Assembly (NCBI GenBank): GCA_017499595.2
Contig: CM039010.1
Span: forward strand, 1,116,001 to 1,180,000
Source: Psilocybe cubensis
Lineage: Eukaryota
Direction: 5' to 3'
DNA length: 64,000 bases
Part shown: piece by piece, positions 33,260 through 62,726 of the stretch
How positions within the stretch are numbered: position 1 is the stretch's first letter
Layout: each line of letters opens with the position of its first letter
Made by a program: the position numbers and the translations under genes
The notes under the pieces: model-generated
What the model was told of the DNA's origin: nothing
Seen by the model: only the letters and a program-made list of their open reading frames with translations
Database searches by the model: none

Positions 33260-34785
33260 ATGAAAGATGTTCTTCTAGTAGGATTTGGAGCGGTGGGAGC
33301 GATATGCGAGTACATGCAATTGCCAAAACGAAAAAACAATACTAATGTTCATTATAATTGGTAGACTCCCTTATCCTGAAGCGGAGCGGTCTGGCAAGAG
33401 TTACAGCTGTTGCCCGGAGCAATTTCGAAATCGTCGACAGTGAGTCTAAATGCCATTATTTGCCCAATCAACAGGCTATTCAAACGAGACATTATCGCGA
33501 AAGAGGAAGGGATTCACTTTGAGAGTCGCAAGTACGGCAATATCAAGGGATGGAGACCTGATCGCTGTACGTCACATTTCCTCAACTTACGTGTGTTAAA
33601 CAAAGTACAACATTTATCGATCATCTTCAGTATGCAAATCTGTTGCAGAGGCGGCGGATAGACCTTACTCTTACGTGCTGGTCACTACTAAAGCTATCCC
33701 TGAGCTGGTCAGAACATCAGAAATGTTGGCTCCTTTGTACTCAAATGACTACAGAGCAAAATTTCCTCAACCGGCATATGTCCTGCTTCAGAACGGCCTC
33801 AACGTTGAAGTGGAGTTGTATAAAACCCTCAAAGCAACCTTACATGACGATCCAAAGATCATAAGCACCGCTCTATGGATAGGGACCAATTTGTTGAAGC
33901 CAAATGTAGTAGAGCACAATGACTTTGTAAGTCGATCTTTGACAATGAGCATTTTTGTTGCTGACATATGGAACCCAGGACAGACTGTCTCTTGGAGTGT
34001 ATAGACATGAAGATCGTACAACAACAACAAACACCGCTGAGGAGGCTGCACTACTAGACGGTATCGGGCACATCCTCGAAGCTGGGGGGTCAACGATTTC
34101 AGTTGTGCCCGAAATCCAACGCGTGAAATTCAAAAAGAATTTCTGGAATGTCGCGTTCTCTTCATTTGCAACGCTCACACGGCAAGCTTCCTTGGTATTG
34201 CAGCGGTTGGAAACTAACATTGACTTAGATATACCCTCCCAGCCATGTTCCGAGCGCCTCCTGAAAGTCCTTCGAAACCATATGAACCATACGTTTCGCC
34301 TGCCACAGCGGATCTCATTTCTTCCTACACAATCCCTGCAGTTAAAGCTACCCTCAATGAGCTTATTGTACTGGGTATGTAGAATTGTTTTTGTACCAAG
34401 TTCCAAACTGACTCGGAATCCATTTATGATAGGCCGTGCTCTCGGGTTCCCGGATACAGAGGACGGCCTTCCATCCTCTATAGCTGAATCAACCTTCGAA
34501 GGGACGTGGAAATTGCATACACGGGCTGATAGTACCCATGTTCCCAGCATGCTCCTTGATGCTGAGAAAGGTTTCCCAATCGAGGTGGAAGTGATCGTTG
34601 GTGAGGTTGTCCGAATGGCAAAGGAAAGAAATGTCGATCTTCCTGTAGGCATTTTCATTTCCTCAATTTCCAGCTAACTGATGCAATGAGTTTAGCGAAT
34701 CGAAACATTATATGCTCTTTTACTTGTAGTACAGAACCAAATATTGCGCAAGAGGGAAGAAGCAAAACCAACGCGCAATGTTTGA
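33260..34785 (+). CDS. 2-dehydropantoate 2-reductase-like (ApbA/PanE family) oxidoreductase, copy 1
   Basis: 'VLLVGFGAVGAI', 'VARSNF', 'LVTTKA', 'LLQNGLNVE', 'KFKKNFWN', 'PSMLLDAEKGFPIEVEVIVGEVVR'. Confidence 0.88.
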
Positions 34786-34900
34786 CGGAGAAGGTATCTA
34801 AACTCGCCGTTGGACCAAAACCCTGAATCGACGATAATGCCTACATGACGCAACCACTTCTATACCTAGAACAAAAATGTAGAAATTACACGCTTCCGCT

Positions 34901-37900
34901 TTAATCGGAGGGTTTTGCAGATACGAGGATTTGTACCAAGTTCAAGAGGGTATCCATCTTAGCTCCAATATTCTCAACCTTCAACTCCAGCTTGTCCATG
35001 CGCTTCTGAAGTTCGACTTGTCCTGTCTCAACATTTTCTGCGGGTAAGCGGCCCGCACTGGCATCTACTTGACTGCCCTCCGCTTCAGAATCGCTGGAAC
35101 TGACAAGATCATTGTTGCCAATGTCGCTGAGATCCGTGTTAATGTCATCGAGATGTTCGCCTCCAAGTAGATCTTCTTGTGAAAGTGTCGAAACCCCGTC
35201 ATAATTAGATATCACGCCAACCTTCCTCGCCATGTTCTCAACGACCCCTTTCACCTTCTCGCCTTCTTCCAATTGTTTGTTCATTTTTTCCTCGAGTAAT
35301 GTGATATTCGAACTGATATCTTCAAGTTGACGACCTACATCATTGTCTTTCCCTAACCGGATTGGCTTGACTTCAATACTATCGTATATGCGAAGGATTT
35401 GATGTTCCAGACGTGAATGGCCCAAGCTTCCTTGGCTCAATGGGGCATTAATGCGTTCACATTGATAGCAGAAAAAGGTCAAGGGAGCTGTTGGTCCAGA
35501 ATATGAACTTTTGAAAACAGGGAAGGAAGCAAATCACCTACAGCAAACAATGCATACCCAGCAAGGCAATGATATAGCCGTTCCACAACAGGAGCAACAG
35601 ATGGGCGGTGGTCCATCTGTTGTTGGCGATTGAGTATCCACGCTTTCCAATTGCCTTCTCTTCAGGCCTTTTTTGCTCTTCACAACTTTGCCTCTGCGAA
35701 CGGCGAGTTTCGTTTTGGATTTGTGTTGAGCTTGTTCCTGCAGACGGAACATCATCTTCGTTCTTTCGGATATCAACCTGGCCTGGGGTAAAATGGTGTT
35801 AAATTCATATTTATGAATTCGGCGGGGTGACCGCATGAGTGAATGTGACAACTTGTGTACAGCGCCAAACATCGAACTCTCATTGAAAGGACCTGGTTTA
35901 TCAATGCAATTGTAGCAAAGATCAATATGGTCGTAACGGGTCAGAACATCGTCCTTGCAAGTAATGCATTGATGCCGGACAAAAGCAATGCCATGGCGAC
36001 ACACGTCACAGGTAGCTCGTCCCCTGATAAAATATCAGTAGTGTTCTACTTATTTTACACATAATAAAATGGCGTACACTGGAGCAGCAAAGACTTCTCT
36101 CCTAGCGAAGTAATGAGCCAGATCGTCGTACATGCGCGCATATAGCGGAGGCACACTAGACAGCAATGTGTCGTACGCTTCCCATTCTTTGTCCGAAATA
36201 GTTTCATAATCATGCCAGCTGGGTACCACGTCGTCATCTCCCATATCAAAACGCATTGAAAGTTGGAGCCATTCTCGTCGCTCAGTCAAAGCCAAATTGA
36301 ATGCCTTGCGAGATCCCATGCGAATTCGAGTATCAGAAAGTACAGCTTCAATTGCAAAGAACCAGCGTTTACGCGCAAGAGGCCAAATGCGCCAGCACGG
36401 TGGTGTGCCAGGACCATCAAGAAGATAACGGAATCGGAACAGATGAACAGGTGTCCGTTTGAGGTAGAATCGACCATGACTAATGCTCATTGGCGTCTCT
36501 GCAGACGGTCCCATTTCTGGGTTAACGATTTCCTCAGGCACTATTTCTCTATGGCCAACACTGACAACGGTGTCTTCTGTGATCATAGCGACAGTGTCCG
36601 ATGCACTGACAGGCTCTGTAGTAGGCAAGGTGTCGTCCATAGCAGGCGCATGGTCACGCACTTCCTCGATTGATTCAATCTCTGCAGAAAGATCGATTAT
36701 AGGCATTGATGTCGGATTTGCGTCAATACTGTCTGAGTTCGATTCTTCCAAGGGGTCTGTCTGAGGGTCTTCAGTGAGCCCGGATGGCTCGTCGGCATTA
36801 TTCCAAACAAATGTGCCTTCGATGGCATCTTTGTCTGTATTGTAGAGTCCTACGCATGATTGCTTGCGGAAATTCTTCGAATCTTTGGGATTGAAGTCGA
36901 AGCGAATATTGAAGTCGGACGCGGATGCATGTGTGGGTTGGGCTTCAATTGTCCAGACCATGTCAACATCTCCGAAAAATGTCTCAGCCTTAGCGGAAAA
37001 CATATTTTCGACAATGGGAGGGATTACACAATGAAAAGGTCGTATGTAACTGGGGTCGCCGTCACCGGAGAAAAACCAACCAACCCACATGCCTTCTATT
37101 GGATGCGAAATGTGCCCAGGAGGTGGTGTGGACAGAACAACGGCGTCCTCGATCTCGAACGTTTTTCCGACTTGTTTAGATAAAATCGTGGTGTCGGGGG
37201 TTGCTGTAGTTGGTAAATCAATTCGATTCAGGTGTATATATTCATCCATTTGTATGGACATCAAGATATTGTCGGACATGTTGTACTCTCTGTTTTTGAA
37301 TGCTGCATAGAACTGAAAAATGCAGTCGTCTGAGCTATTGTCATTCCCTCCGACATACATAAAACATACCATCCCATAAGAGTAGCTTTGAAATTGTGCA
37401 TCAACGTCCCTGTGTAGTTGATGGAATCTAGCTTTAACTTGATTGAGGGCGATTCGTTACCAACGGTTCAAAAGGCCGGCATACCTTCCAGATTATTCAT
37501 GCGTTCGTCAAAGACTAGAAAAACTTGATCAAGTGATGTCGTATGCACATCCAACTCCGCTGGATCGAGCACAACAGTCTTTGCTAAATGCATGATCTTG
37601 AGATGATGTTGCAAAAGTATATTAACCATGGGGAGAATCCACTGGGATTAAAGTCAAGATGCAACCATCCATATCAAGAAAGAGGGGAAATGACTGACAG
37701 TTTCCACCCTGAATCCTCCTGCGATGGTTGTTGCATCCATTCGAGTTTCAATGACGTGTCCCATGTCGCTTAAATTGGCCCTCAAGCGTGTCATTTGACG
37801 AGACGACACAGTATTTGCAATTTCTTGCAACTTGGGTTCTTTGATTTCAGGTAAGGGCTTGATAGAACGTAAAAGGGCTTCGATTCGTGTAATGACAGGA

Positions 37901-51975: not shown

Positions 51976-52399
51976 CGCGAAGGATCAAGGGACTCTGATG
52001 TTCTCGGCCCGGTAGCCGATGTTAGTCTAGGACGCCCATGTGATCGACTCCTTGTTTTAACTACACCACCATGTCGCTTTTAGAGCTCGAAAATTCAAGT
52101 AGCTTCCAATCTGTTACGAAGAAGCCACCACGAAAAACGGTATATGAGATCATAGTATCGGCAACACTTGACCATACAATACTATCCGTTACGACAATTT
52201 CTCATACTGAGCAGGCATACTCTAGAAGTTGACGGGTATACTTAATATCCGTGCAGCACTCACAGGCCTCGCAACTTTCAACCTCATTCACATAATTGAT
52301 AAGACAATTTACTCACAGGTTACTATAGGAAGAATTCTGGCTTCTTGAATAAAAGACCACGCATGTAATGCTCCTCACTTCCTTCACCACCATCATCTC

Positions 52400-55464: not shown

Positions 55465-56186
55465 TCAGTCTCCTCTTTCAAGGAAGCCCACACCACCTGC
55501 GCGTACTTTGCTGATGAACATTTCGTACCACCGTTGTATCACGCTCATTGGAATGGCGACATCGGGACTCATGGGTCCGCCAGATACAAATCCAGAGATA
55601 TAGTTGAAAAGGTGTTTGACAATACGTTCCGCCAGCATGGTAGGGTCTTTTGCGGGACTGGCATTAGTCGAGGCGAGGGCCGATGGTAGTTGTTCCAGCT
55701 GTTGTTGGATGGTAGAGATAGGCTCGATCGACAGCCCCAGAATCGCAGTCACGTCCTGCTGCATGTCCGGTCCTACAGAGGAGTAGGAAGAGAATTTATT
55801 TTGCGCGGTCGAGGAACTCGGTCCAGAATAGGTGCCTTTCAAACGAAATATAGCAGATGGCTTTTCGTTTGATAGCCTGAGTGATGGTCAATGTTAAGTA
55901 TTAGGCCGTCAACATCGACACTCACACTCCCAGCAATTGGAACCCCTTTCCTGGCCAGAAAAAATGTACCGCCGCCCCGAAACCGTCAGGGAAAGGTACT
56001 TTAGAAGTTATAAACTGATCAGTGTGTGTCCCATGGAGGCGAAAGAAGCAACATACCTGTGCCTAAGAGAAAGACACACACATGATTGATAGTGCTTGCG
56101 TTTGGCAGTTCAAAGTAAGCATGGGTCTCGTCCACCTGGATGAGATTTGTCTGAAGCAGACGGCCTGCGACACAACAGCCGAACAT
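55465..56186 (-). CDS. OPI10: Hikeshi/OPI10 (DUF775) family protein
   Basis: '[15 protein letters not shown]', '[10 protein letters not shown]', '[12 protein letters not shown]', 'LGLSIEP', 'LFNYISGF', 'WYEMF'. Confidence 0.85.
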
Positions 56187-56805
56187 AGTCCTGAGATATC
56201 AACACGGTTGCCGCCTATCCAAATATCTTCTTGAAGTTGACTATGCCGGTCTGACCGGTGACTTTGTTGTGGAGGTAGTGAAACCCGTGAAGTTATCCAA
56301 AAAGTAGTTGGCGAGTAGGTATTATACTCTCTATGCGTCGTGCCATTTGTAGAGGTTTCGGGAAAGTATGGGAACGTGCCAGAAATGGATAGAACGGTGC
56401 CATCAATAATATCGGATGCTCTTGCACCTCAACCACTTTGTTCTGCTGGTTATAGAGATTCAAATTCATTTGAATCCATAGACTGCGGTCCTTGCAATTC
56501 TACTCAAAGAATGACACCGTAACACAATCAGAAATGGCTGGCAGCTTCGCAAGCTTCAATAATGGCACGGAAAAGTTGTGTTGAAGTCTTCTTATGGCAG
56601 TGCAGCGTACAACGTCAATGGTACGTTTCCTAGTTATCAAGTCAAATGTTGCTATCTGACCAATGATAGCAACTGGCAAAAATAAAAGTTACCTCTCCCC
56701 AGAGCACAGCTTATGGCGTTTTTTTAATGCTGGCTCATTTCTGGCAACTTATATTGTGATTCCACGCGCAATTTGCGGCCCTCTTTCAAAAAACGAAGAT
56801 TACCC

Positions 56806-59800
56806 ATGGATCCATTGTCAATCACTGTGTCCGCTATATCACTGGCCACGACTCTGAATAGCATATTAGAGTTGGCGCTGGGTGTACGAGAGTCTTTTCA
56901 AAAGGTTTTAAAACTACTTAATCTTACGATGCTGGAATCTCACTATCATTAGATCTGCCGGAACAGAGAGGGTGCCCGCATACTTGCCTCGGAAATAATT
57001 TCCACCCTGCAACAATTGAAGTGCTTTTATGATGAGCATCTCGACCTGTTGGAGAATTCACCCTCTATCCGGACAGCAGTGTTATCATTAAAGAGGCATG
57101 TTTGTTGGTCAATTGGTCAATGGTGTATTCGTTTTATCTCATAACTGTTATAGTGAGGTTGAATCGATATATTCGAAATGTCGCGCAATCACACCTGTTA
57201 CTGCCTCACGGACAGTCGTGGAAAATGCTAAACTAGCATTTAAGCATTGGACACGGCGGAACAGCATTGAAAACGAGATCAAGGAGCTTAAATGCCGGGT
57301 TAGCCTGTGCTATATACAGTTCACGGTAAGTAGTCATATCTTTCAGTAACACCAATGCTAACTCTTGATTCCAGATGTTTGCTGCTGCTAGAGTAGAGGC
57401 ATCCACTCAAAATATACGAGCTGTCGCAAAAAGAATTGATGCTACAACTATGAGGATCGAGACTCGAATACTAAAATTTCAACAACACCACCAAAACTTT
57501 GGGATGGAGGCAAACCGACAATCCCCATATTTTGATCCACGAAAAAGGGATACACAAGTTGCCGATGGTTATCTACGCAACGAAGTGGATGAAATCGATC
57601 AGATACTCAAATTCATTCTAACACCTCACACCATATTCACAATCACTGAAGACTCCCACCTACGCCCATTTAGCCCCGTTCTTCATTTTAAGCCGGATTC
57701 AAATAAGAAACCAACCTATCGTCGCGAAATCATCAGCATGACCATCGATTTATTCCGTCTCCTAAAGAACCTTCCTGCATGCGAAACGTCATTTCAGTTA
57801 GGGGCGGAAAATTTACTCAACTTATCAATTGGACTTTACCATCTAGAATTGTACCAGGAAGCCGAAGTTATTGGCATCTGGGCAATCAAATTATTTCGTG
57901 TTCTAACGGACAGTAACCGAGACTCGTATCGCCCTTATCTTGCTCTTTGTCTTCACAATGTAACGCATTATCATATGGCCCAAAATAATGCAAAAGAAGC
58001 ACACGCTGCTATGGTGGAATGTCTCGACATATCCCGAATGCTGGTCAAGGAATCTCCTACTCCCGAACTCGTTGCCTCCCTTTCTCGGTCATTGGTCAGG
58101 TCGTCGAAGATGGCCACTGTGGATCAAAAATATGCCCTTTCCCTACTAGAGAGTCAAAATGCGGTCAGAGTCATCGAAGATTTCTTTCAATCGACCAACG
58201 AAAAGCATCGTGATCTTAGTTTTTCCTTATTCTTTGGTACTGGATCCTGTTATTTGCAGCGAACTTTGGATCGACCAAATGGAATGGAAATTGTTTCCAA
58301 CGAAAGTTCGATGACTCAGATTTTATATGAATATTCACAAGCCCTTCACCAATTGTCACATAACCTTCACCATCACGGAAGATTCTTGGAGGCCATTGAA
58401 GCAGACACGAAGGCCTTGCAGTCGATTCACTTCAGTGGCCAACCGAACACGATTTCTATCCACGCCGACATTGCCGAGATATTGATTCATCTATGTCACC
58501 CAGATCTTCGTATATTCATTCAGGTTGACGATATTGTTCGGTATATTGGGGATGCTGTCGCCATATACCAACGATTTGCCGATGAGGGCCTTATCGTGTA
58601 TTCCAGGCCGTTGTACCATTCGCTGTATATTCAGGCTGTGATACATAGGTCCGTTGATAATCATACCGAAGAATTAAAAACGTGGAGCCAGGCCGTCAAC
58701 GTGGCAAGGTCAATCGATGATAACGTACTTTGTGCCAATGCCCTACATCAGAATTGCTGGAGTCTTCGTAAATTAGGCCGACTTGATGAAGCAATAAAAA
58801 CTCGCAACGAAGCTATTCGAATTTATCTCTCTGTTATCGACGTCCCAAGTGAAGTCCTGGCAAATACTTACTATGAACTCGCTGTCGACTTTCAGCTTGC
58901 GGATCGTCATAAAGAAGCAAAGGATGCGGTTCTTGAGGCTCTGAGGCAATATCGGATTCTAGTTTTACAGGATCGCGAGATGTACAAGGAGGCTCTAGCG
59001 GACACCACCACATTGTTGGCAAGCATTTTTCTTAGTACACACGATGCGGATGAAGCTTTGGATACAGGGGAAGACGCTCTTGCGCTATATCTGTCCCTGC
59101 CGTCTCTAATCCATGGTGAAACTGATGCTATATCCAAATATCTATATTGCTTGGATATCAACATGGCCGCCGCGTTCTCGTCATATGACAAATGGAAGGC
59201 AACAAAGCGTGGCCTTTCACTTGTGAAGCTTTTTGAAAAGCTGACACATATATACCCAGACGGTGATCCATTGGGCTTGGTCGTTTGCTGGAGGGACTAC
59301 GCGCTTCTGCTGCATGAGCATGGTCGGACTGAGGAGGCAAGGAAGTGGACGGAAAAGGCGATAAACTCAATCGAATCATACAACATTACAGCTCCTAGTA
59401 CAATCGAACGACTCATCATCTGCTTGCGCACACACGCACTCTTCCTCGATTTTCAAGGTCTCAGACGTGATGCATTGGAAACCATCTTGAAAGCCGTACA
59501 GTTGGCAAATGATGCCCTTCATGTCAACCTCTCTTTGGCCCCCGTTTACATTTCGTTAAAAGTCTTCCACGTTGACTTACTTTGGGAAAGTGGTCGTTAT
59601 GACGAAGCCCTTAGTGTAAGCGAAGAGTCCGTAGCATTTGCTCGACGCACAACATCACTAGATGTGGATAGCCTTATCGGCTGCCTTAACATGCATGCAA
59701 CAGTTCTAAATTTCAATAACCATATTGGACAAAGCATCGATGTAGCCAACGAAGCGATTGAACTGTGCCACTCATATACCGATTTTCTAGAGCCAGATAT

Positions 59801-60365
59801 TATTGCCATTCATCTCTCATATGCTCACCACAGGTTGTCAGAAAGCTTTGCGGATCTGGGCCAGCATGACGAGTCACTCTCTCATGCTGAAGTGTCGATG
59901 AACAAACTTGTCTCCTTCCACAATGTAATCCCATTCGTACGGCTTTCACACTTCCGATACCAATTAACGATGTCTTCAATCAACCTAGCTGAACGGCTCG
60001 CCACGGCTGGAGACTACACGAAATCTATTCAACTTATGATGGATGCTAGATCGTTTTTCGAAGAATCGACCCGTTCTAGGAAGGGTTACTATATCGAACT
60101 TACCCGAGTTCTGCGTTTAACGTGTCTTCTACATTGCTCATTTGGACGACACGATGAAGGTGCTGCTGTAACAATCCACCTAGGTAGTCTCAGAAAACGT
60201 CTCTCCGTCTTTGCTCCCAACATCGCAGCTCTAATTGATAGCGAGTTTGAGCGCCCTATGCGTCGGCCTACTTGGTTGAAAACTTCGGACATAACATCGG
60301 ATTGTTCTTGTTTGCCTGTTTGCTTCCTAGCTCATTCCGAACCTTTTCCAATGCCCAAACCATGA
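56806..60365 (+). CDS. MLKL/HeLo-like N-terminal helical domain fused to a long TPR-like array; no NACHT/NB-ARC seen
   Basis: Exons 56806-56904, 56953-57095, 57154-57325, 57375-60365: MDPLSITVSAISLATTL...ICRNREGARILASEIISTLQQL...WTRRNSIENEIKELK...; repeated 'LA..L..L...L...GR..EA.....EA..IY' TPR-type units. Confidence 0.75.
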
Positions 60366-60677
60366 GTGCCTGGAGACTAACCGGGCATTTAGTTGGGCGA
60401 AGAGTAGACAAAACTGGCACGAAGATCCATGTGACGTATGTATCCAGAGTCTAATCCCAGGCTGTCCCTGGGCATCCGAGGCACTACGGAGTCTGATATA
60501 TGCGCCTATAACCTTCATCGGGACCGAGATGCAAACTTAAAACTTTAATGGGAGGCAAAGAAGAAGAAATGTTTGGTGGTAATGTATATTTTTTACATCG
60601 CTATGAAAGGTAGATATACATGGCCTATGCCAATTTTCTTTTGTCGAGATCACTCGCAAACCGTACAATATCAATAT

Positions 60678-62359
60678 TTACAAGCACTGGCTGTACCATG
60701 GGCCGCTGTAGACGCAAGTAGATCCAGGAACACATGTGGTGGGTCCATTCCAGCCTTGGCCGCCGCTAGGTTGAGAAAAAAATCGCGTTAGGATTCGTCT
60801 ATGAGCTCCATAAACAAAGTGGCACTTACCATTGTCCGTACTTGGTCTGTTGGGCTGGGTTGGCGGTGGTGGTGGTGCTGATGGGTACGTTGCCGGTGGT
60901 GGTGGTGCTGACGGGTGGACGGGTGGTGCCAGCAGAGCCCTGGTAGGTCGAGCCAATATCGCCAATCTTGATGTTGGAGTAAATGACCTGGGCGTTAGGG
61001 GAGTTCTTCTCAAGGTCAGCGGGCTTGCCACCAGTGGTTGGGCAGCTTCCACGAGCGGCACCGGGAGCAGTCGAGTCGACGGGGTAGGTGGAGTCGAGCC
61101 AGAGCATGTTGGCGTGGTGGTCAGCCCAGATACTGAGGGCGAGGACCATACCATTGCGGAGACCAGCCTCCATACCGGCCATACCACCCTTGGCCTCGAA
61201 GCTGTCAGAGTCGCCGAAGACGGTCTTCTGCTCTGTGCAGAACTCCTCGGTGATGGAGTCGTAGGAGGATGACAGTCCAGGGATGTTGACCTTGGAGTTT
61301 TGGAAGACCTTGCCGTCCTGGACGTAGAGGCGGCGGATCTCCTTGAGCCTGCCGTTGGCGGTACCGTCCGTGGTGATGAACTGGGTGACGACGGTCATCT
61401 TCTTCTTGGTGTCGATGGTGGCGCCGGGGCCGTAGAAAGTCCTGTCACCCATGCGATAGGGGTTGAAGTCGCAGCCATCGGGGTCGCAGACACCACCATA
61501 GCGGTCGGTGGGAGTGTTGCACTCAGCTCCGGAGCATCGATAAGGGCCTTCGACAGTACAAGGGTGGGGTGTGTAGGCGGTGGAAATGGAGTTTGCCTCC
61601 CAGATGTCCATCTCGTTACAGCAGGTTCCGTACTTGCCGTTTCCGGCGTTCGGGTCGGATTCAGAAGGAGTCCAACCCTCAGAATTAGCCTGAATGGTTG
61701 AATTAGCAAATGAAAATAGAAATAGAAGAAAAAAACGTCACCTCTCCGTTGATGAATTTCATGTCCTTGGGGCACTGTGAATCGCAGTATCCGGTTCCGT
61801 ACTTGGCACCAGCCTTGTTGGTAGGGTGCCTGGCCAAACCACCGTCGGCGTCCATTTCTGAGAAGTAAAGAGCGCCGTTAAGACCGCAGGGAAGTTGGGA
61901 AGTGTCGACGTCGAAAGTGAATTCCTGGTTAAGAACTTTGAAGAGCTCGTATTTGGAGTCGCTGGCCATGAGGTAGACGCGAGAGCCGATGTTCTTGCTG
62001 CTGCCGCTGCTGGTGAGGAACTTCAAGGTAAGCGCATTGCCGCTGACAGTGATACCATAAGTGCCTTGGTAGTCAGCACCGTCGACAGCACAGTTGGCCG
62101 CACAAGTCTTGCCATCAGGGCAGAGCGTGGCGTTCCAGGAGTTGCCGGTGTAGCAGTTGGTGTAGCCGTTTTTGTCGTGGACCCAGCGCCAGTTGGCATC
62201 GAGGACGACCTGACCGTTGGTCTCGGTCACGCAACCGCCGTTCTTGGTGCAACGTTGGAAAGGGAGCTTGGGGTGGACTTCGGCCGTGTAGGTACCGACT
62301 TGCTGGGCAATAGCCACGGAGCCGAGAGCGAGAGCGAGAAGAGTAGCCTTAGGGAACAT
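60678..62359 (-). CDS. cbh1: GH7 cellobiohydrolase I with Thr/Pro linker and C-terminal CBM1
   Basis: Signal peptide then QQVGT; 'VLDANWRW', '[16 protein letters not shown]', '[10 protein letters not shown]', catalytic '[11 protein letters not shown]'; CBM1 '[21 protein letters not shown]....PWYSQCL'; introns at ~61691-61741 and ~60768-60828. Confidence 0.97.
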
Positions 62360-62427
62360 TGCCGATGCAGGTGTCTCAGAAACTGGGTAGCTGAGGGATT
62401 GGATGATAAATTCCCTGTAATTCTGCA

Positions 62428-62726
62428 GCTTTTATAACAGCCCTGGACGCGGAAAATACCCGTGTCGACTCCAGATAATTGCCTGCAAAGCAGCATAATA
62501 TCGAGTGGCTTAAGCCAAGTACACTGGTACGCGTATGAAAGTGGGATCCGAGCCTGCTAGGATACTTCTCGGAAAGTTGTTGCACCACCACAATGACCTT
62601 GCCAAGGTTGGACGCCCATCCTTGGCGTTAAGCGCCTGGCCAAACATAAACATCCGCAAGGGTAGCTACCACAATTGACCACAATGATCGCGGTTGTTTT
62701 GCCCTGCTTTGCGGGGTGAACTGGGG
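62428..62726 (-). promoter_or_regulatory. cbh1 promoter: TATA box and tandem CreA/Cre1-consensus sites
   Basis: TATAAAAG on the minus strand near 62428-62436; GCGGGG (62711-62716) and CTGGGG (62721-62726) match SYGGRG. Confidence 0.45.

Follow-up and report, generated by a model that had tools for sequence, protein, structure and literature searches.

A spliced gene of Psilocybe cubensis joins a candidate MLKL/HeLo-like N-terminal domain to a tetratricopeptide repeat array with no nucleotide-binding domain

Gene structure and transcription

The window analysed here is a 64-kb stretch of contig CM039010.1 from Psilocybe cubensis, an agaric. On its plus strand it harbors a gene with four coding exons, which starts with the ATG at 56806 and ends with the stop codon at 60363-60365, both as given in the original prediction, which had been made from the sequence alone. 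The spliced coding sequence has a length of 3405 nt and encodes a protein of 1134 aa, in which a helical N-terminal domain precedes a long array of degenerate tetratricopeptide repeats (TPR). The product of the long exon is 100% identical to the UniRef entry "TPR-like protein" P0004 of Psilocybe cubensis (1055 aa).

Four public sequencing runs cover the locus, X1 and X2 from one study and X3 and X4 from another. The kind of X1 and X2 is a guess; they were treated as RNA only because GT..AG joints are present in them and missing from X3 and X4. The latter are DNA-type and colinear with the window across 56300-60800. The features of the gene are the following:

56493..56805, plus strand: 5′ untranslated region (5′UTR); contigs of X1 and X2 extend back to 56509 and 56493, respectively
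56620/56621 to 56668/56669 (1-nt ambiguity), plus strand: 5′UTR intron of 49 nt, GT..AG; joint 56619>56669 in X1 and X2, not in X3 and X4
56806..56904, plus strand: coding exon 1, 33 codons, beginning with MDPLSITVS and encoding a mostly uncharged N-terminal helix; supported by the sequence, the X1/X2 joint and homologue alignment
56905..56952, plus strand: intron 1, 48 nt, GT..AG; joint 56902>56951 (cut +2) in X1 and X2, not in X3 and X4
56953..57095, plus strand: coding exon 2; supported by translation and by an X1 contig which comes from exon 1 and ends exactly at 57095
57096..57153, plus strand: intron 2, 58 nt, most likely GC..AG; indirect support from an orthologue, a family alignment column, a contig end and the P0004 acceptor
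57154..57325, plus strand: coding exon 3, with the near-invariant motif W..R..IE.EI..LK..V..C...F; supported by translation and family alignment
57326..57374, plus strand: intron 3, 49 nt, GTAAGT..CAG; joint 57324>57374 (cut +1) in X1 and X2, not in X3 and X4
57375..60365, plus strand: coding exon 4, 996 codons and the stop codon; read from the sequence

The locus is thus an expressed and spliced gene of Psilocybe cubensis for a protein of 1134 aa, and its spliced 5′UTR comprises at least about 260 nt. Since introns 1 and 3 are removed in the X1 and X2 contigs, exon 1 is joined to exon 2 and exon 3 to exon 4 in the transcripts. The joint between exons 2 and 3 is bridged by none of the listed contigs, none of which covers 57096-57206. 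For intron 2, an alternative reading with GT..AG borders (57100-57157) leaves length and frame unchanged and gives Arg-His at the joint instead of the Ser-Glu of the GC..AG reading. The latter is preferred because the X1 contig ends at 57095, exactly on its donor side, because the public model P0004 uses the acceptor at 57153, because the orthologue P0057 has Gly-Glu at the joint, and because the corresponding column of the family alignment holds an acidic residue. The true intron 2 is therefore probably one of the rare GC..AG introns.

The public model P0004 uses a tiny intron and begins with "MVEVESIY..." from an ATG within intron 2. Owing to this start, exons 1 and 2, and the first 81 residues, are missing from the model. 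Neither exon was part of a search query, and yet both align to the starts of homologues, which supports them independently. Residue 1-2 of the spliced model aligns to residue 1-3 of 33 database proteins. With P0019 of Galerina marginata the alignment runs from end to end (2-1106 versus 3-1094, 30.5% identity, E 4e-145), and end-to-end alignments were also obtained with P0015, P0020 and P0027. The independently annotated orthologue P0057 of Psilocybe cyanescens (1172 aa) has nearly the same N-terminus, including MDPLSITVS; its identity to the window protein amounts to 69% at residues 1-150 and 51% over the repeats. The small 5′ exons which the original prediction assigned to the TPR gene hence belong to it, as seen from the joints at introns 1 and 3, the homologue alignments and the P0057 N-terminus.

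Domain layout and absence of a nucleotide-binding domain

In Pfam scans and structure prediction, P0019 and P0057 served as stand-ins for the spliced window protein. Positions in P0004 are converted to the true, spliced numbering by adding 79. Three regions can be distinguished:

56806..57494, plus strand: N-terminal helical domain, residues 1-178, of a candidate MLKL_N/HeLo-like/SesA-like class; delimited by the family hidden Markov model (HMM)
57495..57698, plus strand: linker, residues 179-246, disordered with one conserved helix; from the AlphaFold2 model of P0004
57699..60329, plus strand: degenerate TPR-like superhelix, residues 247-1123; from Pfam, AlphaFold2 and Foldseek

The N-terminal domain had been expected to span about 140 aa and the linker about 130 aa. 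Instead, the former has about 178 aa, reaching about 40 aa into exon 4, and the latter shrinks to about 68 aa. In the AlphaFold2 model of P0004, which covers residues 82-1134 (mean pLDDT, the predicted local distance difference test, 81.7; alignment of 22 sequences), a long helix extends up to about residue 178 in true numbering and is followed by a disordered stretch. Within the linker, pLDDT is low at 87-114 and 142-156 of P0004, and a helix at 114-140 reaches 81-84. This conserved linker helix corresponds to residues 193-219 of the spliced protein (57537-57617) and contains a tyrosine which is invariant in alignment A3 (Y125 of P0004) and nearly invariant in alignment A4 (Y223 of P0057).

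The TPR region of the model is all-helical with a pLDDT mostly above 85 and consists of about 40 helices (about 20 hairpins) over about 880 aa. The degenerate TPR array put forward before (about 850 aa) was therefore found, with its extent revised to about residues 247-1123. In the exon 4 product, Pfam detected TPR_12 with E 2.4e-25 and 88.9 bits (cutoff 30.1), and TPR_10 (38.5 bits, cutoff 27.5), TPR_2 (34.7, cutoff 27) and TPR_4 (30.2, cutoff 27) also scored above their cutoffs. Foldseek with the whole P0004 model returned the TPR solenoids of Ski3, Ctr9, IFT-A, TTC7B and OGT. No tandem repeats were found at the DNA level in the TPR exon.

A nucleotide-binding oligomerisation domain (NOD), whether overt or cryptic, is absent from the window protein. 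The Walker A pattern G.{4}GK[ST], which had been reported as missing from the protein, was found neither there nor in P0019, P0015, P0020 and P0027. In the exon 4 product, Pfam identified TPR families only and neither NACHT nor NB-ARC; the first 200 residues of P0004 and the single exons matched no N-terminal family. A degenerate NOD in the linker was looked for as well, and none was detected: the modelled residues 82-1134 are entirely helical without any strand, and at about 68 aa the linker is too short for a NOD, the size of which is roughly 250-300 aa. Compared with NOD-like receptors (NLR) and other signal transduction ATPases with numerous domains (STAND), the protein thus lacks the central NOD with its Walker A P-loop, and it does possess C-terminal superstructure-forming repeats and an N-terminal domain which is shared with the effector position of an NLR (see below).

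A family of relatives in the Agaricales

When 1.84 billion representative sequences were searched exhaustively by phmmer with a query from exon 3 and the first part of exon 4 (P0004 residues 3-117), 48 proteins were obtained at E<=1e-3, P0004 included. Most matches lie at about residues 83-173 of the target, an offset identical to that in the spliced model. Two of them, P0012 and P0016, look spurious, the latter being an actinobacterial TPR protein. Among the 47 matches other than P0004, Pfam found TPR_12 in 26, MLKL_N in 13, SesA in 3 and NPHP3_N in 1. The Walker A pattern occurs in two of the 48 proteins, P0051 and P0031. In P0031 (Mycena polygramma, 670 aa), the sole NOD-less member with such a string, it stands at residue 480 and looks like a chance occurrence.

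A profile termed A2 was built from 26 N-terminal segments. The spliced N-terminus of the window protein matches the A2 HMM over residues 1-178 with 173 bits (E 2e-55). Among proteins of 483-2000 aa, the A2 search yielded at least 114 Agaricales proteins at E<=3.4e-29. This count is not exhaustive, because only the 8000 candidates with most shared words were scored; P0057 and P0051 are missing from the result. According to precomputed Pfam assignments, 77 of the 114 listed proteins carry TPR-type domains only (PF24885 in this listing is TPR_NPHP3) and 37 no family, and NACHT, NB-ARC or NPHP3_N is found in none of them.

All named fungal members seen are agarics, with Mycena contributing the bulk; further genera are Favolaschia, Roridomyces, Agrocybe, Hypsizygus, Crepidotus, Crassisporium and Crucibulum. 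At least five paralogues are present in Galerina and two in Psilocybe cyanescens. Several paralogues share a contig (P0058, P0023, P0010 and P0121 in Mycena vulgaris; P0139 and P0140 in Galerina), an arrangement that points to tandem or otherwise local duplication in both genera. In the window itself, tblastn with the spliced model revealed no paralogue, and a word-index search with residues 1-130 of P0004 returned P0004 alone. Judged by these sequence comparisons, the gene belongs to an Agaricales-wide family of the same two-part architecture, strongly expanded in the Mycenaceae.

Database names of the members are "hypothetical", "TPR-like", "Tetratricopeptide repeat family" and, in a few cases, "Fungal N-terminal domain-containing protein". 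In the full-text literature searched, supplementary tables excepted, a NOD-less HeLo/MLKL-TPR fusion is nowhere described; such tables might list some proteins of this kind. In excerpts of the sources, HeLo and HELL domains are described together with amyloid motifs or inside NLRs (PMC12881547), surveys of NLRs start from the nucleotide-binding (NB) domain (PMC12258605; PMC4986451), and the search for stand-alone homologues of the basidiomycete MLKL-like domain (BaMLKL) was limited to proteins of <=400 aa (PMC9815663). Neither approach would therefore list an MLKL-like/TPR architecture without a NOD. The suggestion that this architecture is poorly described is borne out to the extent that no published description was found; far from being a single case, it is the architecture of a family of at least 114 Agaricales proteins.

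Divergence and polymorphism

The two parts of the protein differ in their conservation. Among 72 full-length members, the median of identity times coverage is 56% for residues 1-150 versus 29% for residues 261 to the end, and in 99.9% of 5112 ordered pairs it is the N-terminus that is more strongly conserved. As a pattern of sequence conservation, this would suit an effector that stays constant while the binding module attached to it diversifies. Four assemblies from two studies show 14 coding differences, 3 of them synonymous and 11 non-synonymous, the latter all at codon 213 or beyond. The resulting ratio of non-synonymous to synonymous polymorphism (pN/pS) of about 1.1 is suggestive, yet it comes from far too few sites to call selection.

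Identity of the N-terminal domain

The N-terminal domain is linked to NLRs by P0051 of Mycena epipterygia (1409 aa), which has the same N-terminus (30% identity, E 3e-22) followed by an NPHP3_N/NACHT domain with a GNSGAGKS P-loop and 13 ankyrin repeats. From this NACHT-ankyrin architecture it follows that the domain also fills the effector position of a canonical NLR. For basidiomycete NLRs, MLKL-like N-termini (BaMLKL) have been described by Wojciechowski et al. 2022 (PMC9815663, seen in excerpts), a picture into which the present domain would fit.

In a Pfam scan of the 26 A2 segments, MLKL_N matched 18 (best 1.6e-5), PigL_N (PF17111) 10 (best 1.3e-4) and SesA (PF17107) 5 (best 5.5e-6), with all MLKL_N matches below threshold. 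PF17111 is the former HeLo-like N model. MLKL_N (PF22215) reached 16.3-19.2 bits in P0008, P0025, P0034, P0037 and P0072 at a cutoff of 27. P0039 scored 17.8 bits against SesA, with a cutoff of 26.3, yet covered profile positions 6-118 of 122. Searched against the sequences of the PDB, the A2 profile matched human and mouse MLKL chains with E 0.001-0.0098 and 18.4-21.7 bits; A2 positions 17-96 aligned to MLKL 7-85 (about 80 residues) in a register that corresponds to the start of the bundle, and apart from MLKL no natural protein family ranked near the top of this search. In the ESM Atlas, which was used for leads only, half of the domain pointed to MLKL_N (0.84) and PigL_N (0.78), and residues 1-160 of P0019 lay near PigL_N and SesA clusters (0.90-0.92).

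The family consensus starts with MDPIT.TTT.ITLATF. In exon 1 of the window gene, residues 3-21 are uncharged, as befits a hydrophobic helix at the extreme N-terminus, and a role of this helix in membrane targeting may be envisaged. The membrane-targeting role of HeLo and HELL domains, as outlined in excerpts of PMC12881547, is the model for this proposal.

An AlphaFold2 model of residues 1-215 of P0019 (pLDDT 69, predicted template modelling score 0.49) consists of helices at 4-62, 71-94 and 103-154. Foldseek with the N-terminal model gave nothing at E<=1e-3 in the pdb set, and MLKL and HeLo are absent among the listed matches of the fold searches (Foldseek pdb, wide, and a second look). The best fold matches are BAR domains, PorM, designed bundles and similar structures.

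Several observations speak against this assignment and against an immune-type role of the protein. No family member reaches the Pfam gathering score for MLKL_N, PigL_N or SesA; the closest relatives P0019 and P0057 show no match to these three models at E<=1 or E<=10, and the exons of the window gene themselves give none either. The top of the PDB profile search is taken by a designed coiled coil (E 1e-4), and helical composition may therefore inflate the MLKL score. In the P0019 model, the helix at 4-62 is continuous without a hairpin, and a compact four-helix bundle did not form at this pLDDT of 69. The TPRs lack high internal repeat conservation, a mark of the hypervariable repeats of fungal NLRs. 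The gene lies in a housekeeping context (Hikeshi-like, glycoside hydrolase family 7 (GH7), Argonaute, biotin ligase) with no immune-type neighbours. 

Weak support for docking of the N-terminal part on the TPRs comes from prediction of a complex between residues 1-250 and 268-1017 of P0057, which scored 0.36 compared to 0.00 for the best control. The docked pieces are one chain cut 18 residues apart, and proximity may be favoured. Contacts in this prediction agreed by at least 27% with a partner pLDDT of at least 56; the mark applied is reached by 51 of 78 solved complexes and by 2 of 108 mismatched pairs, and scores of 0.60 or less are wrong more often than right.

An MLKL/HeLo-like nature of the N-terminal domain, as originally predicted, finds partial support in the recurrent weak matches, in the MLKL profile match at E about 1e-3 and in P0051; it finds none in the sub-threshold Pfam scores or in the model, in which no compact four-helix bundle formed. 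On balance, the domain probably belongs, as a genuine though remote member, to the superfamily formed by the MLKL four-helix bundle, HeLo-like and SesA domains.

Comparison with known systems

Different known systems resemble parts of this architecture. MLKL, the executioner of necroptosis in animals (four-helix bundle, brace helices and pseudokinase), likewise has no NOD, and in it too an N-terminal helical domain is linked by a short helical segment to a large C-terminal domain with a regulatory function. The C-terminal part of the window protein is a TPR solenoid of about 880 aa, whereas that of MLKL is a pseudokinase; moreover, the mushroom family has about 10-16 extra N-terminal residues before the equivalent of MLKL helix 1, and an activator of the RIPK3 type is not known for this family. 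With the fungal HeLo/HELL proteins HET-S and HELLP, which are controlled by amyloid signalling from NLRs, the protein shares the MDP... start, a largely uncharged N-terminal helix and weak similarity to PigL_N and SesA. Whereas the window protein finishes with a long TPR array, HET-S and HELLP are of small size and terminate in an amyloid or prion-forming motif.

Fungal NLRs of the all-in-one type, in which a HeLo-like or BaMLKL effector is followed by NACHT or NB-ARC and then by TPR, ankyrin or WD repeats, are related to the window protein by the N-terminal domain common to P0051 and by TPR_10/TPR_12 repeats common to the NB-ARC protein P0007. Their defining NOD, however, is absent from the window protein and from all 114 listed profile matches. 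In plants, RPW8/HR proteins, which are MLKL/HeLo homologues, also consist of a NOD-less helical domain of the executioner type followed by repeats (excerpts of PMC6684095 and 10.1101/682807). The RPW8/HR repeats are short and not TPRs, and these proteins act via the NLR RPP7, which is controlled by the C-terminal repeats of RPW8/HR (PMC6684095).

Proposed mechanism and rival explanations

Taken together, the likeliest of the readings considered is that the protein is a self-contained molecule with a TPR sensor and a helical executioner, MLKL-like rather than NLR-like, although we give it slightly less than even chances. In such a protein, the N-terminal domain would be a membrane-targeting executioner, and the fast-diverging TPR array would act as sensor and autoinhibitor by binding and restraining this domain. 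The N-terminal domain would come free from the TPR solenoid upon ligand binding or when a guarded protein is altered; its uncharged N-terminal helix would then target the membrane, and the conserved linker helix would take the role of the MLKL brace. Roles in immune reception and cell death are accordingly conceivable from the analogy with these systems. More tentatively still, the family may constitute a class of Agaricales receptors that operate in innate immunity or cell death independently of a NOD. In these receptors, a diversifying TPR sensor would directly gate a membrane-attacking domain of the MLKL/HeLo type via a brace-like helix, and NOD-anchored surveys would have overlooked them; we regard this wider claim as possible and rather doubtful.

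Such a finding would bear on several points. Known schemes for the control of fungal killer domains, at least in excerpts of PMC12881547, are control in trans by amyloid signalling from an NLR, or incorporation into an NLR in front of the NOD. A conserved and expressed family without a NOD would represent a third scheme, in which sensing repeats control the domain without nucleotide-driven oligomerisation, and, if true, a fungal counterpart of the MLKL principle made from NLR parts. It would also mean that NLR censuses anchored on the NB domain under-count immune-type architectures, and for Psilocybe cubensis it means that the public gene model at this locus is without its most informative domain.

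The most serious alternative is that the protein is a TPR scaffold or adaptor without any role in cell death, whose coiled-coil-like N-terminal domain serves oligomerisation or tethering. In that case, its similarity to MLKL, SesA and PigL_N would stem from helical composition, or from a fold that is common to them although the functions differ. We regard this as possible and not as the likely case. The scores of the MLKL_N, SesA and PigL_N matches, all below threshold, are what it would lead one to expect, as are the BAR domains, PorM and designed bundles as best structural matches of the N-terminal part, the resemblance of the whole-protein fold to the scaffold TPR solenoids of Ski3, Ctr9, TTC7B and IFT-A, and the housekeeping neighbours. 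PigL_N-type domains also occur outside NLRs, in part according to their family description. Against a scaffold, three related Pfam models recur across the family, and MLKL is the sole natural family near the top of the PDB search; lineage-specific expansion, members sharing a contig and fast divergence of the TPRs fit a gene family in conflict. In addition, the same N-terminal domain heads a NACHT-ankyrin NLR, at the place where fungal NLRs carry effector domains (excerpts of PMC9815663).

It is unlikely that the protein acts instead as the partner of a separately encoded NLR, be it as guardee, decoy, helper or regulator, with oligomerisation supplied in trans. Fungal domains of the MLKL/HeLo type are usually under NLR control (PMC12881547, in excerpts), the NOD-less RPW8/HR proteins with repeats act together with an NLR in plants (PMC6684095, in excerpts), and the TPR_10/TPR_12 type occurs with NB-ARC in P0007. 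Against this, NACHT or NB-ARC was detected in none of the 20 long open reading frames tested in the window, and no amyloid signalling motif was noticed, without a formal search for one.

That the gene is the decaying remnant of an NLR which lost its NOD, or still hides a degenerate one in the linker, is very improbable: although both the N-terminal domain and the TPR type occur in NLRs, the frame is intact across 1134 codons, the gene is transcribed and spliced, the full-length architecture is kept in several Agaricales families with a NOD in none of the 114 listed proteins, and the cryptic NOD is largely refuted by the missing Walker A motif and the strand-free, all-helical model, next to a linker of about 68 aa.

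Genomic neighbourhood

Beside a RING gene, the following genes were recognised around the TPR gene:

59895-60766 and 60678-62431, minus strand: GH7 cellobiohydrolase with a CBM1-like C-terminal end, tail to tail with the TPR gene
55465-55887, minus strand: Hikeshi-like gene
50782-51984, minus strand: N-terminal domain of a biotin-protein ligase
46176-48246, plus strand: Argonaute gene, with the Pfam domains ArgoN, PAZ, ArgoL2 and ArgoMid in successive frames

Further upstream, at 33873-39321 on the minus strand, five long open frames (468, 266, 237, 220 and 210 aa) gave no Pfam match at E<=1e-3, and one or two genes, unannotated or lineage-specific, may have these frames as their exons. On the 3′ side of the TPR gene, individual contigs of X1 and X2 span from its end into the GH7 gene and on past the intron at 60766, so that an overlap between the 3′ ends of both transcripts is possible.

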